Part shown: positions 2,986-33,388 of the stretch, one piece after another
How the letters are laid out: every line of letters starts with the position of its first letter
Numbering within the stretch: the stretch's first letter is position 1
From: Deltaproteobacteria bacterium
GTDB lineage: Bacteria; Desulfobacterota; Deferrimicrobia; Deferrimicrobiales; Deferrimicrobiaceae
Length of the DNA stretch: 64,000 bases
Reading direction: 5' to 3'
NCBI GenBank assembly: GCA_050263095.1
Contig: JBLNEW010000027.1
Coordinates: 25,485-89,484, forward strand
Program-made: the position numbers and the translations under genes
The notes under the pieces: generated by a model
Told to the model about the DNA's origin: nothing
The model's input: only the letters and a program-made list of their open reading frames with translations
The model's database searches: none

Positions 2986-3081
2986 TGGCGGAAGCGCGAG
3001 GGAATCGAACCCTCCGAAGACATTTCTGCCTCCCGGCCGGATTTGAAGTCCGGGGGGGCCACCAGCGCCCCATCCGCTTCC
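2986..3081 (-). tRNA. selC: tRNA-Sec (anticodon UCA), selC-like, about 96 nt with encoded CCA
   Basis: Minus-strand sequence GGAAGCGG...CCGGA-CTTCAAA-TCCGG...long GC-rich variable arm...GAGGGTTCGATTCCCTC-GCGCTTCC-G-CCA. The 7-nt anticodon loop has UCA at positions 34-36. The architecture (8-bp-type acceptor, long extra arm) closely parallels E. coli selC (GGAAG...GGACUUCAAAUCC...AGGUUCGACUCC...CUUCCGCCA). Confidence 0.85.
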
Positions 3082-6198: not shown

Positions 6199-6273
6199 GG
6201 GCGCTTAACTCAGCGGTAGAGTGCCACCTTCACACGGTGGAAGTCACAGGTTCAAGTCCTGTAGCGCCCACCA
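6199..6273 (+). tRNA. tRNA-Val (anticodon CAC) with encoded CCA
   Basis: GGGCGCT acceptor stem, D-arm ACTCAGCGGTAGAGT, anticodon stem CCACC/GGTGG with loop TTCACAC (CAC at positions 34-36), T-arm ACAGGTTCAAGTCCTGT, then AGCGCCC-A-CCA. Confidence 0.85.
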
Positions 6274-9468: not shown

Positions 9469-9506
9469 TAATTGGAAGTTATATCCAGCGCAAATGAGGC
9501 AGGACA

Positions 9507-12476: not shown

Positions 12477-12521
12477 TGAAGATGGCATAATTTTTTTATA
12501 ATTATTGGCTTTAATGCGTCA

Positions 12522-15535: not shown

Positions 15536-15539
15536 TTCA

Positions 15540-16811
15540 TCACCTCGTGAATTTGACATGGCACTGGACGCAAAGATCCATTTTAGGATCGAAATAAGCG
15601 AAAAGTTTCTTGTCGGTTCCATGCGACCGGTGGCAACTAAGGCAATCGAGGCTGAGATTGCGGTTACGCGGATCGACGATCTTCGCGCCGATCGGATGGG
15701 ACTTGTGTCTCTGCCAGTCATGGCAGGTTCCGCAAAGATCGATCGTCGATGCGTTATCCAACAAGAAAACATTATTCGAGGAATGCGGGGAGTGGCAACT
15801 CGAGCATTTCCCTTCCTCGACAGGTTTGTGTTTCGCAACCGACTTCTCTTGTCTAGCCATGGAATCCGCATGGCATGCCCCGCAAACCAATTTCACCTGC
15901 TCTTTCATAAGGCCATCCCATTTGGAGGAATGGGGATTATGACAGGTCAGACAACCCTCCTTACCCAGCAAAGGCCAGTGAACCCGGGTCTTTCCAAACG
16001 TATCGTTAAGCATGGAATTATGGCAGCCGCGGCATAATTCATATCCCGTCTTCCTGACTTTGAGCGCATTCGTCGAAGACGCTTCAAAGTGACATTGGTT
16101 GCACATCTTATTGGCAACGGGTCTATGGACATTCCCCCAGAAAAGCCCTCCCCTGTTGGAGCCGTGTGGATCATGGCAGGAGGTGCATCGCGACTTGGCC
16201 ACCGGATAGGCCTGATGCTGCCTAGCAAATGCGGGATTGGATGTCTTGTGACAATCGATACATAGGGATGGCACAGGATTTTTCAGCAGGAACGCGGAAC
16301 GTGTGGAAGCATGGGGATTGTGACAATTCAAGCAATCCGTCCCTACGGGGCCATGCTTGAACCTATATTTTTTAACGGCCTCGGATACTCCTTTATGGCA
16401 GCTGTAACACAGCTCGTTCCCCGAACTTCGCAAGTTAAACTTGTTATTGGATGCATGTGGGTCGTGGCAGGTCATGCAGTTTCCATCTGCTGCCGCCTGG
16501 TGGACACTTTGCGGCTTGGAAGGCAGTATGCCATCGTGACACGAAATACATATTTTATTTGCGCCAAGGGCTGTCAGTTTCCCGTGACCCGAGGTATGCG
16601 GATTGTGGCAGCTTGAACAGTCTCCCGACTTCACGGGGGAATGAACGAACGGCAGCTTCATTTTCTCGGCGAAATCCGTATGACAAGCGACGCAGATTTT
16701 CCCTTTCGCTCCCGGTTTCAATTTGAACTTATCCTGGGTATATGACGGGGATACCGACAGAATGGAAACGGGAACTAGAAACAGCAGGACAGCTTTCAGT
16801 CGCAAATTCAT
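15540..16811 (-). CDS. Multihaem c-type cytochrome with 16 CxxCH motifs
   Basis: Signal peptide MNLRLKAVLLFLVPVSILSV after an AGGAGA ribosome-binding site. 16 CxxCH motifs, many in the CxxCH(N/D)PH form typical of Geobacter-type polymerised c7/c3 domains. The start lies 10 nt after the stop of the upstream 26-haem gene. Confidence 0.85.
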   Translation of the reverse strand: MNLRLKAVLLFLVPVSILSVSPSYTQDKFKLKPGAKGKICVACHTDFAEKMKLPFVHSPVKSGDCSSCHNPHTSGHGKLTALGANKICISCHDGILPSKPQSVHQAAADGNCMTCHDPHASNNKFNLRSSGNELCYSCHKGVSEAVKKYRFKHGPVGTDCLNCHNPHASTRSAFLLKNPVPSLCIDCHKTSNPAFARQHQAYPVAKSRCTSCHDPHGSNRGGLFWGNVHRPVANKMCNQCHFEASSTNALKVRKTGYELCRGCHNSMLNDTFGKTRVHWPLLGKEGCLTCHNPHSSKWDGLMKEQVKLVCGACHADSMARQEKSVAKHKPVEEGKCSSCHSPHSSNNVFLLDNASTIDLCGTCHDWQRHKSHPIGAKIVDPRNRNLSLDCLSCHRSHGTDKKLFAYFDPKMDLCVQCHVKFTR

Positions 16812-16821
16812 GATTTCTCCT

Positions 16822-18801
16822 TTACTTCTTATCCACGATGTGACAATCCTCGCATGACCTTCCGGCAAACGGGGGGTGAACCTTGTTCTTGAAGAACTTC
16901 GGATCCTTCGAGGCATGCGGGTCATGACAGGATCGGCAATCCATTACCGCAGCATCGATGTATATATGTCCTTTTGCGAAGGACGCCGCATTTAGATCGT
17001 GGCATTCCCCGCACAATTTACCCGGAGGTTGGGAGAGCAAAGTCGTCTCGCTGGAGAAATGATGGGAATGACATCTCAGGCAATCCCGGGATGCGGGAGA
17101 GTGCGGCGTTTCCTTCTGGAGCTTCTCTTTTATGTCCTTATGGCATGCCAGGCACAGATCGGGACCTTGAACGAGGAGGAGTTTGCCTAATTTGGATTGG
17201 TGGGGATTGTGGCACTTCGTGCATTGTCCGGTCATAACCGGCGAGTGCGTGCTTTTACCGCTCTTCATTCCTGTGCCGAGTTCGGAATGACACTCGATGC
17301 AAATCTTCTCCTGCTTTCCCAGTATCATGCCAGGCAAGTTCGTCCCATGGGCATCGTGGCAGGTCAAGCATTCCCCCCCCTTGAAAGGCTCATGAGTTGA
17401 TCCACCGACTGACGATTTCGTCAGGTCTTCATGGCACTTCGAACATAGCGCCGCTCCAGCCAGACGGAGAAGCTTTTTCTCCTCCGAACCATGGGGATTG
17501 TGGCAGCCATCGCAATCCCCCTTAATTACCGGTTTATGAGAGTTGGTTTTTAAAAAACTCACTTCGGCGTCGGCGTGACACGCGTAACAAACCTTATCGA
17601 GACGATCCTTGACCAATGCATTGAAATTGGACCCGTGGGGATTGTGGCAAGCAGTGCATTTGTCCGAAATGAATGGCTGATGTCGGATTTTCGCCTTTTG
17701 TGCTGCCATCGTCTTGGGATGACATGTGAAGCATAACGTACTCCCTTTTTCCAGCAGGAGCCCCTTGTTCTTCGCGGCATGGGGGGCATGACAGGAAAGA
17801 CAGCCTTTCCCTCCGGTAACAGCGCCATGATTCCTGGCCACCGTTTCTCCCTTTTCCTTGTGGCACCCAAGGCACAGCGTTTTCCCCGGCTCCGCGAGAA
17901 GGGCAGGGTTTTCGGAAGAGTGGGGATTATGGCAGGATAGGCAATCCCCCTCCTTGTACGGGATATGTAAAAATTCTCCTCCGGCATTCAGCTTGCGATC
18001 ATCGTGACATTGATAACATAGAGCGCTTCCTTTCTCATTCACGCCGAACGGAGTTTTCGAGCCGGGCTTTGCATGGCAGGAGTCGCAGTTTCCCTCTACG
18101 ACGGGGCTATGGGCACTCGATTTCAGCAGCCTTGGCTGGCCTGATGAATGTGGATTGTGACAACCTGAGCAATTCGATTTTTCTACAGGGTAATTTCCAT
18201 GAGCCTTATTGAAGTTTGACTTGCCGGGGCCGTGACATGAAAGGCAAAGCGGAGTTGCAGCCTTTGTCAGCAGATTATCTTGGTCGGAACTGTGCGCAAG
18301 GTGACAGGCCTTGCATCCCTCCTTAATCATGATTTCATGGTTTATCTTGTCCTTGAACGATTCTTTCTTGTGACACTGGAAGCACATCTCCGCGCCTTCC
18401 GCCTTCAGCATGTGCTTTTCCTCGGAGGCATGCGGATTATGGCATTGCGTGCACTTGCCGGTTTTCATGGCTGAATGCACCTTGGACTTGTTCATGCCTA
18501 TTTTCCCCCGGTCATGACAAGACAAGCAAAGATCGTTTCCCTGTTTTTTCAGCAGGTTACTGGGAACAAGCCCGTGACGGAGATGACATTCCTCGCATTT
18601 CCCTTCCTTGACGTTCGGATGGATCGCCTTCATGGGAAAATATTTTGCGGAAAACTTTTTATGGCAGTCCAGGCACCCTTTTTTCTGGAAAGTTCTCACC
18701 TGCGCCCACGAAGGGACGTCGTACACAAGAAATGTTCCTCCGGAAACCAGAGCGAGTGTTACGACAACGAATAAAATTCTCCTGGATCCGCATGAAAGCA
18801 T
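16822..18801 (-). CDS. Multihaem c-type cytochrome with 26 CxxCH motifs
   Basis: 659 aa with a signal peptide. 26 CxxCH motifs, roughly one per 25 residues (CLDCH, CEECH, CLSCH, CTQCH ... CRSCH, CEDCH). Confidence 0.85.
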   Translation of the reverse strand: MLSCGSRRILFVVVTLALVSGGTFLVYDVPSWAQVRTFQKKGCLDCHKKFSAKYFPMKAIHPNVKEGKCEECHLRHGLVPSNLLKKQGNDLCLSCHDRGKIGMNKSKVHSAMKTGKCTQCHNPHASEEKHMLKAEGAEMCFQCHKKESFKDKINHEIMIKEGCKACHLAHSSDQDNLLTKAATPLCLSCHGPGKSNFNKAHGNYPVEKSNCSGCHNPHSSGQPRLLKSSAHSPVVEGNCDSCHAKPGSKTPFGVNEKGSALCYQCHDDRKLNAGGEFLHIPYKEGDCLSCHNPHSSENPALLAEPGKTLCLGCHKEKGETVARNHGAVTGGKGCLSCHAPHAAKNKGLLLEKGSTLCFTCHPKTMAAQKAKIRHQPFISDKCTACHNPHGSNFNALVKDRLDKVCYACHADAEVSFLKTNSHKPVIKGDCDGCHNPHGSEEKKLLRLAGAALCSKCHEDLTKSSVGGSTHEPFKGGECLTCHDAHGTNLPGMILGKQEKICIECHSELGTGMKSGKSTHSPVMTGQCTKCHNPHQSKLGKLLLVQGPDLCLACHKDIKEKLQKETPHSPASRDCLRCHSHHFSSETTLLSQPPGKLCGECHDLNAASFAKGHIYIDAAVMDCRSCHDPHASKDPKFFKNKVHPPFAGRSCEDCHIVDKK

Positions 18802-18829: not shown

Positions 18830-20524
18830 TTATTTCACGAAATTTGAGATTATATCCTGTATTTGGGTATCGCCGGCAAGCACCTTGATCTCCGATGCCG
18901 CTCGCAGTTTTGCCGCATACTCTTCAATTGCGATTTGAAGGTTTTTATTAAACAATTTGCTTTTGATGTCCCCTTCCACCGAATTGAAAGGCTTCGGCCT
19001 GGAGGGGGTGACATCACGAATATAGAAAACATATATATGCCCTTCGGGACTCGTATAAATCCGAAAATCTCCAGGATTTGCCCCCGATACTGCTTTTCGT
19101 ACGTCATTCGGAATTTCGTCAAGCGGTAAAGCTTCTTCATCAAATTTCAGGAGATTTACCGCAATATCCTTTGATACTTGCCCGGAAGCATTCTCCATTA
19201 TCCAGAGGAAATCGGCTCCTTTCCTGAGCTTTTCGACAGCATCCAAGGCATATTCCTTATTTACGAAAACCAGGCTCTTAATTTTTAGAGATCCCGGAAG
19301 CGTATAATCCGCGATGTGCTCTGCGAAATAATTCTTTACTTCCTCATCTTCGACTTTAATCCCTGGAACAATAACATTTCTGATGAATGTACCAAACAGG
19401 ATGCTTCTCCTGTATTCTTCAACCTTATATTTGTATATTTTCATCCGATCAATTTTAAGTCGTTTCGCTTCCATTTCATAAACCGTTTTCATTACGATTT
19501 CATCGAGAACTTCCGCTTTTCTCCTGTTCACTTTCTTTTTTTCGCTTGCCCGTTCAACCCCGTGGAAAAATTTCTTTTGCAAGCTCTCAGAAAGACTTGA
19601 GACTGTTACCTGCTTGCCTCCCTTGATCCTGGCAATGATCCGGTTATCTCGCATAAGCGTCCCGTAATCCGGCTCAGGCACATCATAATCCAAGCCATCG
19701 AGGAGTTTCCTGTCCAGCTTCACATATTTTTTCTTCAATGCTTCCGAGTACGCCTTTAATGCGCGCAGTTTTTTTGCCTTTAAAGCTTCCTCGCGTGCAA
19801 GGGCAAGCGCATCGCTGTTTTCTGGAAAGCGGACATCCTCCAACATGCTTATGGAAAACCCGTTTCCGATTTTTACGATAGAGGTAATCGCGCCTATTTC
19901 AATCATGGATATTGCTTTTGCGACTTCCGGGAGCAGATCTTTATGTTTAATATACACTCCTTCTTGCCCGCCCTTGGCTTTCCCTTCACTGGCCAATTTC
20001 TTCGACAGAGACTCGAAATTCCCTCCTGATTTAATATCATCCTGGAATTTTCTTGCATCTTCCTCTGTGTTAATGAGAACGGAGGACAATTTCACTTCCT
20101 TGATCGATTCCCGATATAGTTTCCCGACCTCTTTTTTGTCCGGAGTTTTTATGCCCCTTATATGGTATGAATACAGCATCTGTCTGAGCGTAGAATTTTG
20201 ATACGTCGCAATATCTTTTATTACTTCATCGAGTTGGTCCAAACCGATGTTTTTCGATTCTTGAATGAACAATTCCATATTAATAAGCCGGTCGAGAAGT
20301 TCCGACTGGGTTTTCCGTACCGTTGTTTCTTCCTCGGACACGCCTTCATGCAGGGAAACAAGCGCTTTTTCGAATGCTTCGCGCGTTATCGGTACACCGT
20401 TCACGGTGGCAAGCGCAACATTACCGCCTCTCCCCCGCCCCTTGGCAGAACTCGTGAATCCCGTAGCGAAAAAAACAAATAACAATCCAAGCGCAATCGA
20501 TGCCGATAGAGTAGATTTCCTCAT
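18830..20524 (-). CDS. Periplasmic SurA/PrsA-like peptidyl-prolyl cis-trans isomerase (parvulin domain) chaperone
   Basis: Signal peptide. A long SurA-N-like helical region followed by a parvulin-type domain (...GGQEGVYIKHKDLLPEVAKAISMIEIGAITSIVKIGNGFSI...). Lower G+C than its neighbours. Confidence 0.65.
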   Translation of the reverse strand: MRKSTLSASIALGLLFVFFATGFTSSAKGRGRGGNVALATVNGVPITREAFEKALVSLHEGVSEEETTVRKTQSELLDRLINMELFIQESKNIGLDQLDEVIKDIATYQNSTLRQMLYSYHIRGIKTPDKKEVGKLYRESIKEVKLSSVLINTEEDARKFQDDIKSGGNFESLSKKLASEGKAKGGQEGVYIKHKDLLPEVAKAISMIEIGAITSIVKIGNGFSISMLEDVRFPENSDALALAREEALKAKKLRALKAYSEALKKKYVKLDRKLLDGLDYDVPEPDYGTLMRDNRIIARIKGGKQVTVSSLSESLQKKFFHGVERASEKKKVNRRKAEVLDEIVMKTVYEMEAKRLKIDRMKIYKYKVEEYRRSILFGTFIRNVIVPGIKVEDEEVKNYFAEHIADYTLPGSLKIKSLVFVNKEYALDAVEKLRKGADFLWIMENASGQVSKDIAVNLLKFDEEALPLDEIPNDVRKAVSGANPGDFRIYTSPEGHIYVFYIRDVTPSRPKPFNSVEGDIKSKLFNKNLQIAIEEYAAKLRAASEIKVLAGDTQIQDIISNFVK

Positions 20525-20611: not shown

Positions 20612-23600
20612 TCAGTCGCTGTCGGCTGATCCCAGCGCCCGTTCGATTACCTTATCGGTCATTTCCGCAGCGAGGGCATGGGATGTAGAAACTTTTCCCC
20701 AATCGAATAGAAACATGCAGTCGCTCCCGGTATTATAACTGGTGGAAGACCACGCCACCTTTTTTTTATTCGTGTCGATCGCCTGGCTTGAAAAATTCAC
20801 TAGCGGAAAGCCTGCCGGACCGATCGAATCCTGATAATCCCTCACGCTTCCGTAAAAAACCAGATCGGCATCCATCTCTTCACGCAGCAAGGCCGCCTGT
20901 GGAAGGGATAGTCCTCCCTCAAGGATCATCCGAGAACGCAATATGGCCATCCGAACTTCACCCGGATCGATCACGACAAGATCCCCTCTTTCTGCAAGAT
21001 GTTTCAAAAAATGCAGACGCATGATCTCACCGGCGTTTTTACGGGAACTATCGTTGAAAAAGGGAAGGACCGCGACCGATAGCGTTTTTCCGGTGCCTAG
21101 CGCAAAGTCCTTATTGCGAAAGAACTCCTTCGGATGGAATCGTTCACTTCTGCCGACACCGGAGCTGCGTCCAGTATTTTTTTTGATTCCACCAGTCTCT
21201 CCTGATAAAAGATGGCCGCTCATGGAATCTAGTATTTTGTTTACGACCCTGTCTCGGAGTATCCGTGAATCTCTTTCAAGACCTATGCCCAAGATTCCGG
21301 GAGCATCGTTTCCTGCCACGACGATGCTGTCCATCCAGATAATGGAGGCTTTCCTTCCGGTAGAGATAAGTCTGGATGTCAGGGCTACTCTTGGTGGGTA
21401 GTCTTCCGAAAATAAATCGATCGATATGGCAAGGACCGCGGCCGCGCCGGTTTCCTGTCTCAAGGCCTGCCCTGTATCCTTCGAAAGACCGGCGGCATAA
21501 CGGATCCGATGCCGTGTCATGAACTTTTCAAGGATTACTTCATCGACCACCTTGATCCCGTTCCTTTTCATTCGAGTTATAACGGATTGATTGATCTCTT
21601 TTACAGGAGCGGCGACACCGCTAAGGTTCTCAATCGGGAACACGGCGATCAACGAATCCAACCCGAGTTCTCTTGTAATTTCAAATCCCGAAGACCAGCC
21701 GCTGTCCGCGGTATTTCCAAGGGCGTCACGCAGTACCACCTTGACCCGATAGAAACCGGGTTGCTCGGGTCTCCATTCCAACACCGGCGACGGCCCTTTC
21801 TGCACGATGATCTCTTTGTTCCTTCTAGAAACATGGAACTCGTAGACGTACGCGCCGATGCCTCCGGAAGCGACTGCGGTCCACCGGATGACTGCGGATA
21901 CCGCTCTTTGTGGAAACGACACGTCAGGAACGAGGTTTATTACAGCGGGAGGCAACACAACCGCGTACGGCGGCGACCAACCGCTGCTTGCGATATTGCC
22001 CAGGGCATCACGCACAATCACATTTACCCGGTAACTGCCAGGCTCCCGAGGCGCCCATTCCAAGCTTGACGAAGGCCCTTCCTGCAATATTCTTTCTTCT
22101 TTCCCGTCGGATACCCGGAACTCGTATCTTTTTTCACCTACCCCCCCCGATGTCTTTGCAGTCCAACGGATGGTTGTTGTTCCGGCGGCTTGAGGGGGTT
22201 GCCTGTCGGGTGCCAGTAAATCGACTTTCAGTTGAGGCATCACCATGTATTCCGGAGACCATCCTCCATCCAGCCTGTTCCCGAGGGCATCCGTCGCGAT
22301 AACTTTTACTCGGTGTAGTCCCTCTTTCATCGGCGTCCACGCCAATACGGGCGAAGAACCCTTCTGCTCGCTTACCTCTTCCGTTCCATCAAAGCTTCGA
22401 AATTCATATAATCGGCTGCCGGCACCGCCCGACACGTCGGCCTTCCAATTAATCGTTGTGGTAACCGCAGTCTGAGGGGAGGGCTTGTCCGGATTAAATG
22501 ATTTCAGCAAAAGCGGCGGGGCAACTTCGTATTCCGGAGACCAACTACTATCCGCGACATTGCCGTGTAAATCCTTGACAGACACCTTCACACGGTAGAT
22601 GCCGGCATCTTGAGGTACCCATATCCATGTGGGCGACTCTCCCTTCTGCATTAATACGACCTCGTTATCCTTATGGAGATAGAAGGCGTAAGTCCGGGCG
22701 CCCATCCCTCCGTCGACGACCGAGATCCAGCGTATCTTGGCTGCATTCGCAACTTGTGGCGATGCCTTGTCTGATCCAAGAGAAGAAACCGAGAGTGGAG
22801 GAATAAATGTATATTCCCGGGACCATCCGCTATCCGCGGTATTGCCATGCGAATCGCGAATTATGACTTTTATACGACAGGTTCCGGCCACCGACGGTAT
22901 CCAATCCAAGGCCGGTGACGGCCCTTTCTTTCTGAAAACTTCCTTGCCGTTCCGTGTAATATGGAACTCGTATTCGAGCGTCCCGATTCCGCCAGAAGCT
23001 GCCGCAACCCACCTGAACGGATTCGAAGCTACCGCCGGAGACATATTATCTGATCGTAACGACTCAATAAACAACGGTGGAACAACTTCGAAAGGCGTTG
23101 ACCAGCCGCTGTCGGCCATGTTACCGGCTGAATCCCGTACTACAACCATCACACGATAGCTTCCGGCCTTTTTAGGCAACCAGCGCCATTCGTGTAACGG
23201 GCCCCTCTGTTCCAGCGTCTCTTCGACCGCATTTAAAATGCGAAATTCATAAGTCAACGCGCCAATACCGCCGGATGCAACAGCGGACCATCGAATCTGT
23301 GACGAAACCGCAGCCTGCGGAGAATTTCTGTCCGGCTTCAATGACACTATTTCAACCTTGGGGGCCACTTCAAACTCCGATAACCAGCCGCTGTCTACGG
23401 TATTTCCCAGCGCATCCCGAACGATCACTTTCAACCTATACGTTCCGGCATCCATTGGAATCCAGTCCCATGCCGGCGAAGGCCCCTTTTGAACCATAGT
23501 CTGCTTGTCGCCTGCCATGGTATGGAACTCATATGTGAATGGGCCTACCCCACCCTCTGCAGACGCCGTCCATCTGATTTTTGAGGAGGATGCCGCCTGT

Positions 23601-24034
23601 GGTGGAGCCTTGTCGGGTTTCATCGTTTTCAATCTTAGCGCCGGGAAAATTTCATATCCCGGCATCCAGCCGCTGTCTGCGATATTGCCCAGTGCATCCC
23701 GCACAACCGCCTTCACGCGATAAGTACCCGCATGCAAGGGTCTCCAGCCCCAGATATTGGAACTATCCTGCTGCTCTACAGACTCTTCGGTCCCCTTAAG
23801 GGTATGGAATGCAAATGTATATGGCGCTTCCCCTCCTGATGCCGAGGCCGACCAAAGGATTGTCGTCATCGTTGCCGCTTGCGGAGACACCTTGTCCGGC
23901 GAATGCAGTTTCACCGCCAGAACGGATGGGATTTCCCGCGAAGGCAGTTGTGTTGCCCGCGAGGAGGCGCAACCGCACAAAACAACGGTGGCTATCAGTA
24001 GGCAGAGATAACTATTTGCCGAATAGTTTATCAA
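20612..24034 (-). CDS. Giant lipoprotein: eight tandem Y_Y_Y-like (Ig-like) repeats plus two C-terminal LpoB/CsgG/DUF799-like domains
   Basis: Lipobox-like LCGCASS. Eight repeats of about 95 aa, each with ...PQAA..IRW.A.ASGG.G.YEF.....E...QKGPSP.W.W.P...G.YR.KV.VRDALGN.ADSGWS..FEV.P. The C-terminus has two copies of a (L/I)AV(F/L)PF.N.S...(40-60 aa)...VVI.PGEV... module also seen in the next gene. Confidence 0.7.
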   Translation of the reverse strand: MINYSANSYLCLLIATVVLCGCASSRATQLPSREIPSVLAVKLHSPDKVSPQAATMTTILWSASASGGEAPYTFAFHTLKGTEESVEQQDSSNIWGWRPLHAGTYRVKAVVRDALGNIADSGWMPGYEIFPALRLKTMKPDKAPPQAASSSKIRWTASAEGGVGPFTYEFHTMAGDKQTMVQKGPSPAWDWIPMDAGTYRLKVIVRDALGNTVDSGWLSEFEVAPKVEIVSLKPDRNSPQAAVSSQIRWSAVASGGIGALTYEFRILNAVEETLEQRGPLHEWRWLPKKAGSYRVMVVVRDSAGNMADSGWSTPFEVVPPLFIESLRSDNMSPAVASNPFRWVAAASGGIGTLEYEFHITRNGKEVFRKKGPSPALDWIPSVAGTCRIKVIIRDSHGNTADSGWSREYTFIPPLSVSSLGSDKASPQVANAAKIRWISVVDGGMGARTYAFYLHKDNEVVLMQKGESPTWIWVPQDAGIYRVKVSVKDLHGNVADSSWSPEYEVAPPLLLKSFNPDKPSPQTAVTTTINWKADVSGGAGSRLYEFRSFDGTEEVSEQKGSSPVLAWTPMKEGLHRVKVIATDALGNRLDGGWSPEYMVMPQLKVDLLAPDRQPPQAAGTTTIRWTAKTSGGVGEKRYEFRVSDGKEERILQEGPSSSLEWAPREPGSYRVNVIVRDALGNIASSGWSPPYAVVLPPAVINLVPDVSFPQRAVSAVIRWTAVASGGIGAYVYEFHVSRRNKEIIVQKGPSPVLEWRPEQPGFYRVKVVLRDALGNTADSGWSSGFEITRELGLDSLIAVFPIENLSGVAAPVKEINQSVITRMKRNGIKVVDEVILEKFMTRHRIRYAAGLSKDTGQALRQETGAAAVLAISIDLFSEDYPPRVALTSRLISTGRKASIIWMDSIVVAGNDAPGILGIGLERDSRILRDRVVNKILDSMSGHLLSGETGGIKKNTGRSSGVGRSERFHPKEFFRNKDFALGTGKTLSVAVLPFFNDSSRKNAGEIMRLHFLKHLAERGDLVVIDPGEVRMAILRSRMILEGGLSLPQAALLREEMDADLVFYGSVRDYQDSIGPAGFPLVNFSSQAIDTNKKKVAWSSTSYNTGSDCMFLFDWGKVSTSHALAAEMTDKVIERALGSADSD
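21634..23899 (-). repeat. Intragenic tandem repeats (8 units of about 285 nt) encoding the Y_Y_Y-like domains
   Basis: Recurrent protein blocks VRDALGN(I/T)(A/V)DSGW and YEFH at regular spacing on the minus strand. Coordinates are approximate. Confidence 0.6.
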
Positions 24035-24587
24035 GAAGATCGTTGACCGCCTTTTCAGTAACGATGTTCATCGGCTCGCCGCCTCCACCGAACAGACGGT
24101 CTGCTGTGGAGACTCCGCCTTTGGTGGAAGAACCAGACCACACAATCCTTCCAGTGCGGCCTTCGATCATCTGAAGGCTGACGGAGACTATATTGGCCAC
24201 GCTCGTTCCAGAACGAACCTCTCCGTATTCCCGCACAGTTCCTGTAACCACAGCGTCTGCCTTTACGATCGTCGCTAACTTCAGTATTTCTTCGGTTGTC
24301 GGCGCTGCCGGAGCAGTAATTCCTGCCCTTGATATCCCGCGCCCCACTTCTCCGGGGGGTATAACGTAGACTCCCTGGGTAGCGAGAAGCATAGTGATGA
24401 AAACATCTCTAACACGGTCAGCGGCGGATGTTTCCCTCGAAAGGTTGGCGAAAGGCATTACGGCCACGTTCTGCACAAGCCCAAAATCCATGTTCGGGTC
24501 CCGGAAGGATCCCTGAGTCGTGCCAAGGGTGGAAGCGCATCCGACTGAAACCACTATAAAGACGAGGATGATTCCGATTTTTTTCAT
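24012..24587 (-). CDS. Small lipoprotein with an LpoB/CsgG/DUF799-like domain
   Basis: MKKIGIILVFIVVSVGCAS lipobox. NVAVMPFANLSRETSAADRVRDVFITMLLATQGVYVIPPGEV...AVVTGTV matches the two C-terminal modules of the giant lipoprotein. The listed ORF start at 24620 is an upstream extension. Confidence 0.6.
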   Translation of the reverse strand: MKKIGIILVFIVVSVGCASTLGTTQGSFRDPNMDFGLVQNVAVMPFANLSRETSAADRVRDVFITMLLATQGVYVIPPGEVGRGISRAGITAPAAPTTEEILKLATIVKADAVVTGTVREYGEVRSGTSVANIVSVSLQMIEGRTGRIVWSGSSTKGGVSTADRLFGGGGEPMNIVTEKAVNDLLDKLFGK

Positions 24588-24646
24588 CCTGTCCCTCGTT
24601 TCTGTCGAGATAATTACCATTATATTCCGCTAAACCCCGCGCATGC

Positions 24647-26872
24647 TCAGAAAGCAAGATGCAAATTCGTACTCACGACCTCGTTCTTATTTTTTTGGGA
24701 AGGAGCATCGTTGTTAAGATACTGATAGGACAAATCAACATACCTACCCCTGTTGCCGCCTATATTCCACCGAAGGCTGGGGATGATTCTCCTTTCCCTG
24801 CTGTTGTCTTCCGTATGGATCGTCTCGTTGTAATTAAAGTTGAGGTTAAGTGTCCCGTCCGGGAAAGGTGACCAGTTCGCCGAATAATTCCATGTTGTTG
24901 TATTGGTCGAATTGCCCAAACTCGTACTCCTGGTTCTCTGCAATGAGCCGAAGATATAGAGAGTGCGGAGTGGATTATAGGTAACCGAAATCCCGCCAGT
25001 CCGCTGTTTATCAGTAGTCTCATCGGAGTTACCCCCAAGCGTCCGCATCGTGTCCGACTCAAAGTACGCGAGATTGACGGTCATCGTTCGATGGGGAACC
25101 AACGTCAGTCCTGCATTTAATTGAATGGTCTCGATCTTCGCAGCCGTACTCGATTTCTGTACGCTTCCTCCCGCTCCTATATTTGCATCCACACCATCAT
25201 ATAAATGCGCACTATTGACAAAGGTGATGGAGTTCGTTTCGTTTTTTTCCTGCCCGGATTCCCGCGTCTGTCCCGTGTATACGACAGAGTGGTGGAGCGT
25301 TTGCAACGGGGTCGCCGAGATCGAAGCGGTATATGTGTAACCCAACTGCTGTTCCCCTGTCTGATCCTTGCTGTCCTCCCGCGAAACCCTTGCGAATCCT
25401 GAAAATATCCGCCCGAACTCGCGGTTGAATGAAAGCCCGTTGGATAGATCGTATGCCGAAGGCAAGGAGGAATTCTTAAGCAGGAAGTACGAAAGCTCGT
25501 AATACAGGTTCTGATTTTTCAAGAGCTTCGCGCGTGCATTAAAGTTGTAGCGATGATTGGTTCTGACCACCTTAGGGTTTATATCGGCGGCCTGCCTCCT
25601 CAGCGTAGCCTGGAGTTCCGTCACGAGGATGTTCGGGAAGTTGTTCGCAAACGGAACGGCCGACGACAGCGGTCTGGTAACGACTTTGATGTATCGGGTT
25701 GTCACTGTATCGAAGTCGATCTGGAACCTGGTCACGAACGGCCCGAAAACCGCCGGGAACACCGCCCTGTGGAGATTCCAGGTCCTGTTGTCTTCGCTAG
25801 TATAGACTTCCCAGGAAAACGTTCCGGCGATATCTTGCGGAATATCCCTGTCGACCCAAACAAGGAGGGAATTCACCTGTGTATCCAGAAAAAAATCCAA
25901 GCCCATGCTTCGTGGTCGGGAGTCCCCCGAAGGCGGTGGCAGTCCGAGATTGATTCCCGTCCCGGCGGCGAAATCCCCATCAATGAGGGCCGGATTGGAG
26001 TCAAGAGTAATCAGCAATGGAGTGTCGTTTATCGATGAAAGACCGGCGACCGGAGAAAGAGGAAAGCTTACCTCGCCTGAACCTCCTTTGGAAAATTCCG
26101 TATCACTATGAAAAATATAATAATTCGAACTAATCGAGATCCGGTTTTTCCACCACGATTCCGAATAGGTCACGCTGCCCTCGTGGGACGTATTCCGGCT
26201 TTCGATATTTTGCAGATTGTTGCGGTTTTTGTTTATTGCTCCGCCGTATCGTAGACTAACCGATTTTACAGGTTGATAATTCGCGGTCAACTGGAAGCTG
26301 TCATCGGTACCATCGTTTATCCTGCGTTCCTTGTCGAAAGTGTCCGTATGGAAATATCGGAAAAATGTTTCGGGAAACCCATCCGGCCTCCACCCCAGGG
26401 TTGCGAAGTATGTCTGTCTCACTGTCGTTAGCGGTGTGGTTGTAGAGGTCTTGACTTCTTGTTCCGTCCGGCTGTATCCCCCTTCGGCCTGATATAGAGG
26501 CGTTCTAAGGTTCAGGATTATGAATGGCCTCATTTTCGTATCGGCAATATTGTTCTCACGACCTTCAAGTTCCGTTATCAATGCATTCCGCTCAAACAGC
26601 CCGCCTGCGACTACGCCAAGATTGGGGAAAATACGTTTGTCGAGCGTCAAAGAATACCGCTGGATGAACGAATCGCTTTTCGATTCGGTTGTAAGTCCGG
26701 CTGCATCCTCGTTCTTGGAAGCCGCCTTCGTGAATATGAAATCCATATATCCGTTCATCCCATCCGCTGCGACTTGCTCAACGATAAGGACCGAAATCAT
26801 AAATAATACAGCAGAGAATCGCAGCGCAGGGAAATTCCTTTTTCCCGATGGTATCCTTGCTTCCTTTCGCAC
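24647..26872 (-). CDS. Large (741 aa) outer-membrane beta-barrel protein, uncharacterised
   Basis: Signal peptide. Extensive alternating beta-strand pattern rich in Y, N, T and G. C-terminus ...VVSTNLHLAF, ending in the terminal Phe signature of outer-membrane barrel proteins. Sits 5 nt downstream of the YVTN gene. Confidence 0.6.
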   Translation of the reverse strand: MRKEARIPSGKRNFPALRFSAVLFMISVLIVEQVAADGMNGYMDFIFTKAASKNEDAAGLTTESKSDSFIQRYSLTLDKRIFPNLGVVAGGLFERNALITELEGRENNIADTKMRPFIILNLRTPLYQAEGGYSRTEQEVKTSTTTPLTTVRQTYFATLGWRPDGFPETFFRYFHTDTFDKERRINDGTDDSFQLTANYQPVKSVSLRYGGAINKNRNNLQNIESRNTSHEGSVTYSESWWKNRISISSNYYIFHSDTEFSKGGSGEVSFPLSPVAGLSSINDTPLLITLDSNPALIDGDFAAGTGINLGLPPPSGDSRPRSMGLDFFLDTQVNSLLVWVDRDIPQDIAGTFSWEVYTSEDNRTWNLHRAVFPAVFGPFVTRFQIDFDTVTTRYIKVVTRPLSSAVPFANNFPNILVTELQATLRRQAADINPKVVRTNHRYNFNARAKLLKNQNLYYELSYFLLKNSSLPSAYDLSNGLSFNREFGRIFSGFARVSREDSKDQTGEQQLGYTYTASISATPLQTLHHSVVYTGQTRESGQEKNETNSITFVNSAHLYDGVDANIGAGGSVQKSSTAAKIETIQLNAGLTLVPHRTMTVNLAYFESDTMRTLGGNSDETTDKQRTGGISVTYNPLRTLYIFGSLQRTRSTSLGNSTNTTTWNYSANWSPFPDGTLNLNFNYNETIHTEDNSRERRIIPSLRWNIGGNRGRYVDLSYQYLNNDAPSQKNKNEVVSTNLHLAF

Positions 26873-26877
26873 CCAAC

Positions 26878-28278
26878 CTACCTTTCTCCCATGATTGTCA
26901 CCCGGAACGGCTCTTCTCCTACTTCGATTTCCGCAAAGGCTTCCTTGCTCACCAAACGGATTCCCTTGACCGTTTTTTCTCCCGGAAGCACGAGGAAAAG
27001 GCTGTTCCCCTCACCGTCGATCGCCATAAAGGCGACCTCGCCCGGCACGGCGATAAAATCGATGGGAAGAAACGAGAAGGGATCGTAGATATCAATCTTG
27101 CCGGTATGCTGTCGCGCCAGGTAGATCCAGTTGTTTTGGTGATCCACCTTCAACGCGGTCGCTCCTGTTCCCACGCGGATCTTGTTGATGATCGAAAAGG
27201 AAAATGGATTAATCACGTATAAATACGGGGAAGATCGATGAGCGACATAAAATCGGCTCCCGTCCCGATTGAATCCCCCACTTACGGGCTCCGAATCCGT
27301 GGATATCGTTGCCGCCACCTGTTGGCTTGGCAGGTCGATCACAGAAACAGAGTTGGATAAGCGGTTCAATATGTACGCTCTTCTGCCGTTCTGATCTATT
27401 TGAAGCGACTCCGGTCCTTTCCCCACATTGATTCGCAAAACTTCAATCAGGGACGCGGTGTTGATCACGCTTACCGTGTTCGATCCGACATTTACGGAAA
27501 GAAGTTTTCCTCCATCCGGCGTCAATGCAAGTTCGCGCGGATAATCTCCGCCGGCGAGATGCAGGCGGTTGTCGACCTCGCCCGTGAGGACGTCGATGAC
27601 TTCGACGGCATCTTCTCCGGAAAGGGCGACATATAATTTTGCTTTCCTTCGGTCCAGCGCCAACCCGGAAGGTGCCGTTCCGGTGGGGACCACGGAAATC
27701 ACATGTCCGGTCAGCTTGTCAAATATCGTCACCGTGTTCGAGTCGCGGCTGGAAGCATACCCAATCAATCCACTTGGAATTTTACCCGGGATGTCGATGT
27801 CAAATACGGGTGATATGCGGAAGCCGCCGTGAAGGGAATCCTGATATCTATATGAAAGTTTAAGGACGGTGCCGCGTTTCCTGCCAACCGTGAAGGGGAT
27901 CACTGTACGAGTGGCTTCCGAAGGCACAAGCACCACAGCTTCCCCTTCCTCCCCTTTCAGCGAGGCAGACTCGATCTTAAAGGCGATGCCAGCATACCGC
28001 CCGGGAGGAAGCGTACCGGAGGCGATCATTCGCTCCTTCGTAACCTCGATTCGATTCACGTCCGTTAAGGAAAGAACCATAGGAAATTCCGCCCCGTCTT
28101 CGCGCAGCGCGGAAATTCCTCCGATGCGGAATGAAAGCCGTCCCGCTTCTTGGGAGAGAGGGGCGATATACAGATAAATCGCTCCATCGTCCTCAAGTGC
28201 AGGTCTGACAAGGGATTTTTTTGCCTGGCATCCCCATAACGGCAGAAATACAGCAAGAATGATCGCAATGCGCTTCAA
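26878..28278 (-). CDS. Lipoprotein with a YVTN-family beta-propeller
   Basis: Lipobox LWGCQA. Repeated YVTN-like units of about 40 aa (SGLALDRRKAKLYVALSGEDAVEVIDVLTGEV; PRELALTPDGGKLLSVNVGSNTVSVINTASL; SLQIDQNGRRAYILNRLSNSVSVIDLPS...). Confidence 0.65.
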   Translation of the reverse strand: MKRIAIILAVFLPLWGCQAKKSLVRPALEDDGAIYLYIAPLSQEAGRLSFRIGGISALREDGAEFPMVLSLTDVNRIEVTKERMIASGTLPPGRYAGIAFKIESASLKGEEGEAVVLVPSEATRTVIPFTVGRKRGTVLKLSYRYQDSLHGGFRISPVFDIDIPGKIPSGLIGYASSRDSNTVTIFDKLTGHVISVVPTGTAPSGLALDRRKAKLYVALSGEDAVEVIDVLTGEVDNRLHLAGGDYPRELALTPDGGKLLSVNVGSNTVSVINTASLIEVLRINVGKGPESLQIDQNGRRAYILNRLSNSVSVIDLPSQQVAATISTDSEPVSGGFNRDGSRFYVAHRSSPYLYVINPFSFSIINKIRVGTGATALKVDHQNNWIYLARQHTGKIDIYDPFSFLPIDFIAVPGEVAFMAIDGEGNSLFLVLPGEKTVKGIRLVSKEAFAEIEVGEEPFRVTIMGER

Positions 28279-28375: not shown

Positions 28376-28412
28376 AATAAAAAGGGGCCGGCGTACAAGG
28401 CCGGCCCCTTTG
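28376..28412 (-). terminator. Rho-independent terminator downstream of the OmcS-like gene
   Basis: Perfect 9-bp GC stem GGGGCCGGC / GCCGGCCCC (28384-28392 / 28400-28408) with loop GTACAAG. On the minus strand it is followed by a T-run (rc of TAAAAAGG). Confidence 0.7.
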
Positions 28413-28459: not shown

Positions 28460-29710
28460 TTAATCCTTCGCGTGGCACTTGTTGCAAAGAACTCTCTGAT
28501 ATGCGCCAAAGCTGGATGCAGGGCGGTTATAGTATGCGGCATTTGCCTGCTCCTGGTTGCGGCCAATCGAGCTAGACGGCCAAAGCACGTTGCCGCCAGA
28601 TACAGTGGTAAGGAACTCGCTCTCACCGTACCAACGCAGCATTTCCGGGAATCCGGAGGCATGGGCGCGGTGGCAAGAAAGGCACATCACCTGGGCGCCT
28701 TGTGTGGGATAGGTCAAGTTTGAGTCATTGTCATTCGCAAAAGACTTGATCACATTGTATGAACCGGAGTTTACGGCGTACGGTACAAGCGAAAGATACG
28801 AGTTGTCGCTGGTGTTCGTCATTTTCCCCGAGCTCATATACGTCTGGTAGTTGCTTGCAAATGTGTTATTCAATGTTTGGTCGACCGGGTGGACGGTATT
28901 GCCCGAGCTGTGCATGCCCGCATGGCACGTCTTGCACCAATTGCCCCATGTGGTATTGCCGGCTGCGTTGCCGACTCCGTAGGAGACGCGCACCTGGTTG
29001 TCCGACTCATCGTGGTTATAGCTGCTGGGCGATATCGCCGCAGGAGCTCCAAGGTAGCCGATCGCGCCAGCCGCAGTCGTCGAGTACCCGGAGCCGGCAA
29101 GCAGACGATATGTACCTACGGCTGCTGTAGCAGTCGGAGCCGCTTTCGTCGTGGAGCCGGAGCCCATAATGGGATATCCCGTCTTGACGATAGTATCATC
29201 AACCAGCCTGCGGAACTGTCCGTGCTGATCATGGCAGGAATTGCAGTGAAGCGCGTTGGACTGGAATGACCCGCCGGGAGCCTGGGCGTTCGTGGCGTCG
29301 GCGGTCATACCATGGTCGACGGCAACGATGTTATGTCCGTGGCTGTCACCTGTTTCATTCGTCGTTTCGCCGTGCGCGGTGAAGGTGAAGGGAATGCGAA
29401 CCCACTGAAAATCTCCGCCCGGCGTATAATTGGCGGGTTTCCCGCCCAGGGCGATTCTGTCCGCATCGGTGGTGAGAATATGATAGCTGCTGGGCGTAGT
29501 AGCGCCCGCTACCATGTGGCAGTTAAGACAAGTGGAGCTTGGATCGCTGCCTTTCAGCAATAAAGTTCCGCTGCCTGCGGCGGGGGAATGCATGCTATGG
29601 CAGCCGGCGCAATCGGCAACGCCGCCCCCGTGAAATGCGTAAGTAGTGCCCGCCCCTAGCGCCAAAAAGGCCGCCGCAAGGATGATGACGCTTACTTTCA
29701 TCGCTTTCAT
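28460..29710 (-). CDS. OmcS-family hexahaem c-type cytochrome (candidate extracellular nanowire subunit)
   Basis: Signal peptide, then the mature N-terminus FHGGGVADCAGCHSMH. Six CxxCH motifs (CAGCH, CLNCH, CNSCH, CKTCH, CLSCH, CNKCH). Conserved blocks shared with Geobacter OmcS as I recall it: SSTCLNCH, PSSYHI, TPGGDF.WV, GHNIVA, LHC.SCHD.HG.FRR.VD, G.YR.L.G.GY, CLSCHRAHASGF, AAYY.R, F..YQR.LCNKCHAKD at the C-terminus. Thr/Ser/Gly/Ala-rich. Confidence 0.8.
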   Translation of the reverse strand: MKAMKVSVIILAAAFLALGAGTTYAFHGGGVADCAGCHSMHSPAAGSGTLLLKGSDPSSTCLNCHMVAGATTPSSYHILTTDADRIALGGKPANYTPGGDFQWVRIPFTFTAHGETTNETGDSHGHNIVAVDHGMTADATNAQAPGGSFQSNALHCNSCHDQHGQFRRLVDDTIVKTGYPIMGSGSTTKAAPTATAAVGTYRLLAGSGYSTTAAGAIGYLGAPAAISPSSYNHDESDNQVRVSYGVGNAAGNTTWGNWCKTCHAGMHSSGNTVHPVDQTLNNTFASNYQTYMSSGKMTNTSDNSYLSLVPYAVNSGSYNVIKSFANDNDSNLTYPTQGAQVMCLSCHRAHASGFPEMLRWYGESEFLTTVSGGNVLWPSSSIGRNQEQANAAYYNRPASSFGAYQRVLCNKCHAKD

Positions 29711-29942: not shown

Positions 29943-30935
29943 TCAGTTCGCGGTAACGGAAAAAACGCTGACTCCAGCCTTCGGAGACTGCGTGACGTAG
30001 ACCTGTCCATTGTTCCCTAACGCTACGGACGCAGGAGCGATCAGGTTGCCGGGTGCGCTTCCCCTAAATCCAAACTCCGTGAGGAATTTGAAGTTTCGGT
30101 TGAAGACCATCACAACGCACTTCAACTTATCGGTCACAAAAATATTTCCGTCGTTATCCACCGCGATACCGGACACAACGCCGAACATTCCGGGGGCGCC
30201 GCCTGGCTTTCCGAAAGAAAATACTTTTCCCTCAGGGGAAACCTTGTATGCCTTGAAATTCACTGGCACCGTGAAGTAGAAGTTTTCTTCCCGGTCGACA
30301 TAGAAACCAAAAAATTCGGTATCGGGGCGCTCGTTCTCATCAACCCCGATAATCGCGCCGAAATTGAAACCCTTTTCGAAAACTCCCCTTTTATCCGTAA
30401 CTATCGCCGTCATCCCTCTCAAGTTGGCGAAAAAGAATCGCCCATTGCGGTAATACATGCAGTTCGGTCCATATTCGGAATATTCCGGGGGGAGGTTCGA
30501 TAACGTGATTTTTTCTATAAGTTTTCCCCGGTAATTACACCTGCAAAGGTAAAACCTGCGCTTCGCGATTCCTTCCGCGGAAGGGTAGTCGGAAGGGGGA
30601 TAATCATAGGAAAGCAGATAGATGTCGCCATCCTCGTCTACGACAATCCCGTAAATCCCGCCCAGTTCCTGCGTCTCAAGGAAAGAATAGATTTCCATGC
30701 CGCTTTCGTTGAAAATACGGACCGATCCCCCGTCGTCAACGTAGACCTCATTGTGTTGGCTATCGACGGAGACCCTCACCTGACTGTATGGAATAGTGCC
30801 GGAAAAATCAGAAAGTTTATAAAGATATCTGGCCGTGATTCCCGATTGAGCGATAGATGGAAATATCGAAAATATGAACGGGACCCACATAAGTGAAAGA
30901 AAAAGTCGAGTCGCATTATTTATAGCAGCATGCAT
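29943..30935 (-). CDS. Secreted NHL-like beta-propeller protein (first gene of the cluster)
   Basis: NHL-type units (GIVVDEDGDIYLL, GIAVDNDGNIFVTD, NNGQVYVTQ). Signal-like MHAAINNATRLFLSLMWVPFIFSIFPSIAQS. The listed ORF starts at 30977; the ATG at 30935 gives a cleaner signal peptide. Confidence 0.55.
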   Translation of the reverse strand: MHAAINNATRLFLSLMWVPFIFSIFPSIAQSGITARYLYKLSDFSGTIPYSQVRVSVDSQHNEVYVDDGGSVRIFNESGMEIYSFLETQELGGIYGIVVDEDGDIYLLSYDYPPSDYPSAEGIAKRRFYLCRCNYRGKLIEKITLSNLPPEYSEYGPNCMYYRNGRFFFANLRGMTAIVTDKRGVFEKGFNFGAIIGVDENERPDTEFFGFYVDREENFYFTVPVNFKAYKVSPEGKVFSFGKPGGAPGMFGVVSGIAVDNDGNIFVTDKLKCVVMVFNRNFKFLTEFGFRGSAPGNLIAPASVALGNNGQVYVTQSPKAGVSVFSVTAN

Positions 30936-31156
30936 GGCGTCGTATGATTCTGCAATGGACATGCCACAACTTAGCATGCAAAATAACCAGCAATATAAGC
31001 CATTTACGGCATTGAGAAACAGCAGAAAAGCATGAGTTGGTGGAAATCCTTATCTCCCCCGGGGAAATCACCAATTGTGTGAATGAAGCAGGTCAGGCAA
31101 GCGGAAAGCTTACTTCGCGTGCGTCAGGTAGAAGAATCGCACGTTAGAATGGGTAA

Positions 31157-31311: not shown

Positions 31312-31989
31312 ATGCCTGAAATGCCCAGTAATCGGGTTCTCATCGTCGACGACGATATGCTGATATGTTGGGCGCTCGACAAGGAGTTCGCAGGCCTGGG
31401 CCTTTCGACCCATGTCGTCGAAACGGGGGAGGATGCGCTGGCGGAGTTTCGGCGGCGTCCCTATGACATCGTCTTTCTCGATATCCATCTGCCCGATTCG
31501 AATGGAATAGATCTACTCGGAGAGTTCAACAGGATCGCGCCGGATGCGAAGATCATCATCATGAGCGGCGATGCCAGCGAATCGAACCGGCAACGGGCAT
31601 TGTCGGGCGGCGCTCTGCAGTTTCTCGAAAAACCGTTCGACCTGTCCGAAGTACATGGCATCCTCAACAGTACAAGCGGCGTATACGTGCAGAAACGGAA
31701 GCACCCGAGGCACATCTGCCGCGCTCCCCTCCGTATTTCCATCCTGGAACCCGCGCCTGAAGAAGCGCTATACGACCTTCATAACCTGAGCGCCCTGATC
31801 GCGGATGTCGGCTCGGGGGGCTTGAGACTCCGCACGGAATATCCGTTGAAAGTGGGACAAAACGTCCGGGCGTACGTCTCCGCCGGAAACGATCCGGTCC
31901 TTAAACTAGTCCCCTCGGAAGCCGACGCCGAGGTGGTGTGGGTGGCCCCATCCCAGGAGGGCATAACCGCAGGGCTGAAATTCCTGTAA
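31312..31989 (+). CDS. Response regulator with receiver domain fused to a PilZ (c-di-GMP-binding) domain
   Basis: Receiver domain (VLIVDDD...DIVFLDIHLPDSNG...IIMSG...KPF). C-terminal PilZ motifs RKHPR (RxxxR) and DVGSGGLRL (DxSxxG). Confidence 0.75.
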   Translation: MPEMPSNRVLIVDDDMLICWALDKEFAGLGLSTHVVETGEDALAEFRRRPYDIVFLDIHLPDSNGIDLLGEFNRIAPDAKIIIMSGDASESNRQRALSGGALQFLEKPFDLSEVHGILNSTSGVYVQKRKHPRHICRAPLRISILEPAPEEALYDLHNLSALIADVGSGGLRLRTEYPLKVGQNVRAYVSAGNDPVLKLVPSEADAEVVWVAPSQEGITAGLKFL

Positions 31990-31996
31990 TGCTGAT

Positions 31997-33384
<1,388 letters not shown>

Positions 33385-33388
<4 letters not shown>

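Follow-up and report, generated by a model that had tools for sequence, protein, structure and literature searches.

A probable osc-type gene block for an OmcS-family cytochrome in an uncultured bacterium outside the Geobacteraceae

The osc (OmcS-companion) cluster of Geobacter sulfurreducens, which is reported on in Shen et al. 2025 (Cell Chem Biol 32:239), is the known system that most resembles the gene block considered here, which lies in a 64,000-nucleotide stretch of DNA (the window) from an uncultured 'Deltaproteobacteria bacterium', positions 25,485 to 89,484 of contig JBLNEW010000027.1 in assembly GCA_050263095.1. According to one paper, omcS, omcT and oscC are members of the osc operon, and oscC, oscI and oscJ correspond to GSU2501, GSU2495 and GSU2494, respectively (PMC13194489). 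In the literature the eight genes that come after an OmcS-like gene, GSU2500-GSU2493, are treated as a block linked to nanowire maturation and secretion, and the product of GSU2495 (oscI) is described as a protein of ~70 kDa with 26 haems (PMC13194489 / bioRxiv 10.1101/2025.11.06.686851). The roles proposed in papers citing Shen et al. 2025 are secretion for OscE, OscF and OscG, filament morphology for OscD, and folding for OscH (PMC13194489, bioRxiv 10.1101/2025.11.06.686851). In one of three published gene patterns ('pattern 3') the block comes after just one OmcS-like gene, and G. bremensis and Geobacter sp. L1geo are among the genomes named as block carriers (PMC13194489 / bioRxiv 10.1101/2025.11.06.686851). 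The hypothesis now current in the field is that OmcS is mounted in a porin-like manner (bioRxiv 10.1101/2025.10.22.684050). A second pertinent system is PelBC, in which twelve PelC lipoproteins form a ring at the periplasmic face of PelB, a barrel of 16 strands (PMC12141448).

Four adjacent genes in the window, at positions 20612-28278, very probably encode the equivalents of OscD, OscE, OscF and OscG, and would serve to export an OmcS-family cytochrome and mount it as a conductive filament on the cell surface. The gene order and gene content are like those of GSU2504-GSU2493, and there is sequence homology to the blocks of G. bremensis and Geobacter sp. L1geo. The locus differs from the G. 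sulfurreducens cluster in that its host lies outside the Geobacteraceae, in that it has one OmcS-like gene without omcT or a second copy, and in the length of its OscG-like protein, 1140 residues versus 365-456.

Correspondence with the osc cluster

All genes of the block are on the minus strand, and coordinates are positions in the window. The four open reading frames (ORFs) are separated by 5 bp and 26 bp, with one 23-bp overlap, and encode an OscD-like lipoprotein of 466 residues (26878-28278), an OscE-like outer-membrane beta-barrel of 741 residues (24647-26872), an OscF-like lipoprotein of 202 residues (24012-24620) and the 1140-residue OscG-like lipoprotein (20612-24034). An independent gene caller run on the source contig, which ENA lists as ERZ27292721 k141_251777, also reports all four, in agreement with the original prediction, made from the sequence before any search, that four consecutive envelope proteins are encoded here.

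The gene immediately preceding them, 181 bp upstream of the OscD-like gene and on the same strand, encodes a 416-residue hexahaem c-type cytochrome of the OmcS family (28460-29710; six CxxCH motifs), the presumed filament subunit. In a phmmer search of the PDB it aligns end to end with OmcS (6EF8/6NEF, E 2.4e-95). The position aligned to His16 of OmcS, the residue that ligates a haem of the neighbouring subunit, is conserved in the cytochrome, in the context ...CHSMH.... The window holds this OmcS-like gene alone, with neither omcT nor a second copy, and so presents a single OmcS-like gene plus block as in pattern 3. Its product is about equally distant from the OmcS-type and the GSU2501-type copies of Geobacteraceae loci. 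In the closest relatives a second OmcS-like gene does lie near the block (L057:6353-7612, minus strand, and L040:1553-2785; L numbers designate the loci compared).

Downstream of the cytochrome gene the order is propeller, barrel, small lipoprotein, larger lipoprotein, prolyl isomerase, 26-haem cytochrome, 16-haem cytochrome and NHL protein, which is the published osc order. The isomerase is an OscH-like, SurA-type chaperone of 564 residues (18830-20524; Pfam SurA_N_2, Rotamase_2 and Rotamase). The OscI-like protein that follows (659 residues, 16822-18801) has 26 CxxCH motifs by count, in agreement with the 26 haems given for GSU2495. The seventh gene of the block, from the gene call, encodes a cytochrome of 423 residues with 16 CxxCH motifs (15540-16811), and the eighth an NHL-repeat protein of 302 residues (14627-15535); the same gene pair is found in L079.

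Further evidence came from the recurrence of this arrangement. The OmcS of G. sulfurreducens, rebuilt from the PDB alignment, served as the only query and genomes were scanned with it, one per species, which gave 78 loci against which the window proteins were then run by tblastn. Matches were obtained in 78 of these loci for the OmcS-like protein, 63 for the propeller, 60 for the barrel, 56 for the small lipoprotein, 53 for the larger lipoprotein, 47 for the prolyl isomerase and 33 for the 26-haem cytochrome, and the window proteins are colinear in these loci, the isomerase homologue occupying the same position in all 47. Most of the missing matches arise because contigs end. If the count is confined to the 62 informative loci, those with at least 7.5 kb of flank, all four OscD-G-like families are present in 48, two or three in five, and none in nine; the latter nine are presumably dispersed paralogues. 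The reverse seeding gives the same picture: the four loci found with the barrel (L083-L086) and the one found with OscG (L079) all have an OmcS-like gene upstream (5/5, E 1e-86 to 1e-109).

Among the OmcS-seeded loci are the two carriers named in the literature. That of Citrifermentans (Geobacter) bremense (L029) is colinear, with 39, 30, 56 and 34% identity for the four OscD-G-like proteins and 39 and 52% for two further ones, and that of Geobacter sp. L1geo (L009) has 39, 28, 64, 44 and 40% identity to proteins of the window block. Further loci come from five Geomonas species, Anaeromyxobacter terrae, Nitrospirota, Rokubacteria, Acidobacteriota and Candidatus Deferrimicrobium. Because the arrangement recurs colinearly in dozens of unrelated genomes it is far from chance, and its strict colinearity beside OmcS genes argues for one functional unit. 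The putative orthology to osc genes draws on OmcS homology, synteny, domain content and these bridging genomes.

In light of these data, the proposal that the four genes form an outer-membrane secretion module tied to cytochrome filaments fits the published osc model, and the co-occurrence with filament cytochromes that had been suggested as a check is borne out by the counts above. The further claim that the system is novel and unnamed does not stand, since the genes correspond to the OscD-OscE-OscF-OscG part of a named cluster, in which only the long Ig-repeat array of OscG is unusual. Thus the locus represents no new kind of system; what it adds is an Osc machinery that is complete and colinear in an uncultured lineage outside the Geobacteraceae.

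The OscD-like propeller and the OscE-like barrel

The OscD-like protein begins with MKRIAIILAVFLPLWGC, which contains the lipobox (LWGC), and continues with an N-terminal domain of ~150 residues and a YVTN beta-propeller, as judged from YVTN repeats (TIGR02276, E 1.1e-37), the Pfam family YNCE and a match to the YVTN propeller of PDB 1L0Q (E 8e-35). A lipoprotein bearing a propeller had been expected at this place.

The OscE-like protein has a signal peptide and the C-terminal end ...NLHLAF, and none of the Pfam or NCBIfam families matched it. The start that is deposited, and also called, would give a protein of 699 residues without the signal peptide. A GTG start at 26872 adds the stretch 26747-26872 to give 741 residues, including a signal-peptide helix (model residues 15-28), and fits the N-terminal consensus of the family. 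An AlphaFold2 model built on a 50-sequence alignment (predicted local distance difference test, pLDDT, 88.2; predicted template-modelling score, pTM, 0.68) has 11 long strands (residues 38-261), a beta-sandwich (262-433; 25574-26089) and 17 further strands (434-740), for a total of ~28. The sandwich, inserted between barrel strands 11 and 12, appears in the model to be a CBM32/discoidin-like domain carried in a barrel loop, so that the large Phe-terminated barrel with an inserted soluble domain, which had been foreseen, is recovered at the level of prediction. By standard barrel geometry, a barrel of ~28 strands would have a C-alpha diameter that we estimate at near 5 nm. Counting strand parity from the C-terminal strand, which ends in the periplasm, the insert would face the extracellular side.

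These features are not peculiar to the window. A profile search for the barrel family over 1.84 billion representatives, at 50% clustering, yielded 1433 sequences within E <= 1e-3, of which 762 reached E <= 1e-30; among the 150 matches listed, those of full length have ~700-780 residues, and the inserted domain is a family-wide feature.

Against the PDB the barrel gives only generic large-barrel matches. The top Foldseek matches are TonB-dependent receptors, with TM-scores of 0.2-0.3 and identities of <=11%, and the matches, which include MtrB, TonB-dependent receptors, ushers and LptD, all fall at <=12% identity. The likeness to chaperone-usher systems (PapC, FimD) extends to the layout, with a periplasmic chaperone, a large single-chain barrel and a gene for a polymerising subunit immediately upstream. 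However, no Usher or PapD Pfam domain is present, the strands number ~28 rather than 24, a CBM32-like insert takes the place of the plug domain, and the subunit is a haem protein without donor-strand exchange.

The match to MtrB bears on a different function. In porin-cytochrome conduits of the MtrAB type a large barrel (26 strands in MtrB) is likewise encoded with multihaem cytochromes, and OscE could by the same token be an electron conduit. It would enclose a multihaem cytochrome, for instance the OscI-like protein with its 26 haems, in the way that MtrB sheathes MtrA; electrons would cross the outer membrane to an OmcS-type filament docked outside, and the lipoproteins would stabilise the assembly. 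The presence of MtrB among the top barrel matches is the sole specific support for this reading, and it is itself generic: that match is no better than those to TonB-dependent receptors, ushers and LptD, sequence similarity to the MtrAB systems is absent, and the cluster adds lipoproteins, a chaperone and a cytochrome of the filament-forming type. In addition, the literature ascribes to OscEFG a loss of OmcS secretion and not just of electron transfer (PMC13194489), and collars of PelC-like proteins are known from an export machine (PMC12141448). A conduit of this kind is thus unlikely as the function of the barrel. The two roles are nevertheless compatible, in that a filament anchored in the barrel would fulfil both.

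PelC-like modules and the Ig-like array

The OscF-like lipoprotein (lipobox SVGC) consists of a single PelC/GNA1162-like domain. Its length is 202 residues as an ORF and 191 from the called start at 24587. The domain matches Pfam GNA1162-like (DUF799, PF05643) at E 1.5e-12, with 47.9 bits against a threshold of 25.9, and LpoB weakly; by sequence its best PDB matches are PelC (9H80, E 1.2e-5) and GNA1162 (4HRV, E 3.7e-5). At 45-72% identity across loci, none of the other three proteins is as well conserved as this one. The OscG-like protein (lipobox LCGC) has two tandem modules of the same kind at its C-terminus (residues 790-1140; 20612-21667), the part that is common to all OscG homologues. 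Module 2 is 30.5% identical to the OscF-like protein (blastp E 9e-12; hhalign probability 98.4%, E 9e-15), and module 1 matches it at blastp E 4e-6. The small lipoprotein, and the 1140-residue one with eight Y_Y_Y repeats and two more copies of the module, are therefore as they had been described.

An AlphaFold2 model of OscG-like residues 780-1140 (pLDDT 84.2, pTM 0.87) has two short alpha/beta modules, for which the top Foldseek matches are PelC (5T0Z, 5T10, 5T11 and 9H80, comprising G. metallireducens PelC, the PelC dodecamer and PelBC) and GNA1162 (4HRV), followed at lower ranks by TolB-N, LpoB, CsgG and FlgT. The PelC matches of the OscF-like and OscG-like modules have Foldseek E values of ~1e-7, TM-scores of 0.6-0.74 relative to PelC and identities of 18-22%. 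Both proteins thus belong with the GNA1162/DUF799, LpoB, CsgG and TolB-N fold group, as was anticipated from the CsgG/LpoB/DUF799-like look of the module, although PelC and GNA1162 are the closer relatives and LpoB and CsgG score far below them: the LpoB profile reaches 17 bits against a cut-off of 110, the window proteins have no CsgG match in Pfam, and CsgG ranks below PelC, GNA1162, TolB-N and LpoB in Foldseek, with 7-12% identity. The modules do not have the transmembrane hairpins of CsgG, and here a separate barrel would provide the channel. The module that OscF and OscG have in common is a family-wide feature and not specific to the window. None of the Pfam or NCBIfam models names OscE, OscF or OscG.

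The resemblance to PelBC (PDB 9H80, 5T10, 5T11) therefore lies in lipoprotein-borne, PelC-like alpha/beta domains encoded beside an outer-membrane barrel. The differences are that the window has no pel operon; that the cargo is a protein, not a polysaccharide; that the barrel has ~28 strands and no TPR domain, where PelB has 16 strands and a TPR domain; and that PelC is a homo-dodecamer, whereas any ring in the window would, by analogy, be built from one single-module protein (OscF) and one tandem-module protein (OscG). The module may thus function in the manner of PelBC without being a Pel system. These comparisons also bear on a second alternative, a Pel-like exporter of an exopolysaccharide or glycoconjugate, the polymer of which would accompany the cytochromes. 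PelC is the best solved relative of the OscF and OscG modules, the predicted insert of OscE has a CBM32 fold, and a 685-residue TPR protein and two ~1000-residue proteins with spermidine-synthase-like, MFS and TPR character are encoded just downstream. Yet the block has no pel, glycosyltransferase or polysaccharide-synthase genes, and its barrel, which has ~28 strands in place of 16 and carries no TPR fusion, is not like PelB, BcsC or PgaA. Moreover, the link between the block and OmcS-family genes extends across phyla, whereas the spermidine-synthase-like and TPR genes (6463-14579) fall outside the conserved block in the other loci inspected, which makes polymer export highly improbable. Finally, that well-known but unrelated families merely lie side by side here, a TonB-dependent receptor and LpoB-type peptidoglycan activators, as the top Foldseek matches of the barrel and the weak LpoB matches of the lipoproteins might suggest, is effectively refuted by the absence of Plug and TonB_dep_Rec Pfam domains from the OscE-like protein and 50 relatives, by the low TM-scores and identities of the barrel matches, by the sub-threshold score and lower structural rank of LpoB, and by the colinear conservation next to OmcS genes.

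The 1140-residue length of the OscG-like protein, against the usual 365-456 residues, is due to eight Ig-like repeats of the Y_Y_Y/PKD type (residues 38-788; 21668-23923), which come after the lipid-anchor Cys and before PelC-like module 1. The repeats are in tandem, 93-94 residues each, share 35-51% identity with one another and match Pfam Y_Y_Y, PKD and Big_13. By tblastn, OscG homologues elsewhere match window residues ~796-1135 only. When a profile of the window repeat was scanned over 174 OscG-like sequences, the repeat was found in 16: eight copies in the window and in L057, two copies in three sequences and a single copy in 11, the remaining 158 having none. The OscG of L086, fetched later, has seven copies, and the form with seven or eight repeats is thus represented by three of ~175 homologues, the two outside the window being from other metagenome-assembled genomes (MAGs; L086:9812-12886, seven copies; L057:15566-19016, eight copies).

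Repeat identity between the window, L057 and L086 is 30-59%, no higher than within the window. A one-to-one positional correspondence of the repeats across the three arrays was looked for and rejected, since none is clear and there is at most a faint diagonal for repeats 6-8. Some Nitrospirota homologues have an array of a different type at a different insertion point, Calx-beta-like repeats after module 1 (L059:15473-19865; L020:18086-20915; L064:15481-17410; these ORFs end in repeat-rich sequence and may be limited by assembly), and a homologue from the protein search (P0239) has a Calx-beta match in Pfam. As read from these sequences, OscG is a recurrent acceptor of beta-sandwich arrays.

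Proposed export model and genomic setting

A model for export by the Osc-like machinery can be put together from two sources. Gene order, homology, folds and co-occurrence with OmcS are from the present analysis, and the roles of OscEFG, OscD and OscH are from the literature; the ring, the passage through the barrel and the roles of the CBM32-like domain and the Ig array are what we infer. As c-type cytochromes are exported by Sec and receive haem in the periplasm, the OmcS-like protein would follow this route and then be handled by the SurA-like isomerase OscH. It would next pass through, or become anchored in, the OscE barrel; OmcS filaments are ~4 nm wide, and the estimated OscE diameter near 5 nm is close to this. 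The PelC-like domains, one from OscF and two from OscG, sitting on the inner leaflet of the outer membrane, would by analogy form a periplasmic collar or funnel under OscE. The CBM32-like domain in the outward loop could cap or gate the pore, or hold the base of the filament or a surface glycan, while the propeller lipoprotein OscD would affect filament shape. In this lineage eight Ig-like domains appear to have been added to OscG, after its lipid anchor and ahead of the PelC-like modules, and our best guess is that the array is a periplasmic arm between anchor and collar, probably a flexible one.

Tentatively, the model may be carried a step further, as a PelBC plan scaled up for a folded haem protein. 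The ~28-strand barrel with its CBM32-like cap would stand on a collar of OscF and OscG, of which four pairs, for example, would provide twelve modules, and arrays would have been gained independently (in the window, L057 and L086, with Calx-beta in some Nitrospirota), possibly as a periplasm-spanning arm. If this were so, the array would connect the pore in the outer membrane with the wall or the inner membrane, or lead subunits to the pore.

Several points weigh against the assignment to an Osc export system. G. sulfurreducens was returned neither by the OmcS-seeded genome scan, in which the best identity to OmcS was 67%, nor by a protein search that started from a Geobacteraceae barrel, and the putative orthology to GSU2497-GSU2500 is thus indirect. 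The experimental roles of the Osc proteins reach us by way of secondary citations (PMC13194489, bioRxiv 10.1101/2025.11.06.686851), and a review terms the mechanism of secretion and anchoring 'still speculative' (PMC12307469). With respect to structure, both the figure of ~28 strands and the outward-facing position of the insert are predictions taken from the secondary-structure string of the model, the PelC-like ring or collar is an analogy, and OscE differs from PelB, the barrel that partners PelC, which combines 16 strands with a TPR domain. Lastly, the host is an uncultured MAG, and polymerisation of its OmcS-like protein is presumed from the genes.

The system itself is already named and partly characterised; what the analysis adds is the reading of OscE as a ~28-strand barrel, its CBM32-like loop domain, the similarity to PelC and the rarity of OscG with seven or eight repeats. 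No mention of the PelC link or of the OscG repeat variants was found in the searchable literature, outside of which Shen et al. 2025 lies. For the way in which the filament crosses or attaches to the outer membrane, the step still called speculative in the review (PMC12307469), the structural reading offers testable hypotheses: that the barrel is very large and bears a conserved CBM32-like domain in a loop, that each pair of OscF and OscG contributes three PelC-like modules, and that OscG has lineage-specific Ig-like arrays. It also provides annotation handles for OscE, OscF and OscG, which Pfam and NCBIfam do not name.

The conserved neighbourhood begins upstream of the OmcS-like gene with an NHL-type beta-propeller protein (29943-30962, minus strand; 339 residues as called; Pfam NHL), a homologue of which occupies the same position in 50 of the 78 OmcS-seeded loci. 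A near-consensus sigma-54 -24/-12 site, TGGCAT-N5-TTGCA at 30951-30966 on the minus strand, was considered and rejected, as it overlaps the called start codon of this gene and as 44 of 100 shuffles give at least as many sites, which leaves no excess over chance. Between the cytochrome and OscD-like genes is a terminator-like hairpin (28381-28411, minus strand) with a 12-bp stem, nine G-C pairs and a T-rich tail, identified by consensus match only. Its position would fit higher expression of the cytochrome subunit relative to the machinery genes, and it may act as an attenuator. At the other end of the block, a frameshift in 14627-16925 (minus strand) was suspected from a 332-bp overlap between the ORFs 15540-16925 (461 residues) and 14627-15871 (414 residues). 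It was rejected, because the overlap results from upstream in-frame starts that over-extend the ORFs, and the gene calls here and in L079 give separate genes, of 423 and 302 residues.

The osc block and its neighbours lie in ~28 kb of low G+C content (0.34-0.58; window 4000-32000), flanked by DNA of 0.56-0.67. The left edge of this stretch is ~1 kb past a tRNA-SeC gene (2986-3081, minus strand), and a tRNA-Val gene is found at 6199-6273 (plus strand). The low G+C content and the tRNA-adjacent edge suggest horizontal acquisition, in line with the reported frequent gain and loss of omcS-type genes (PMC13194489 / bioRxiv 10.1101/2025.11.06.686851). The low-G+C DNA also encodes two cytochromes of ~265 residues with cytochrome c7-type domains (4173-4973 and 5326-6114, both plus strand); periplasmic c7-type (Ppc) cytochromes are reported to charge OmcS nanowires (PMC10954620). 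Two ~1000-residue spermidine-synthase-like proteins, one of which has MFS and TPR regions as well, are encoded at 6463-9468 and 9507-12476 (plus strand), and the 685-residue TPR protein at 12522-14579 (minus strand), where the G+C content is lowest (0.34-0.40).

Regulatory genes flank the cluster on its other side, at 31312-34839, with a PilZ response regulator on the plus strand and a sigma-54-dependent response regulator and a HAMP histidine kinase on the minus strand. A kinase and a sigma-54 activator lie beside the cluster in L079 and L085 also, and a sigma-54 activator and a PilZ regulator are present at the cut end of L086, which suggests that a regulatory module is conserved next to the osc cluster.

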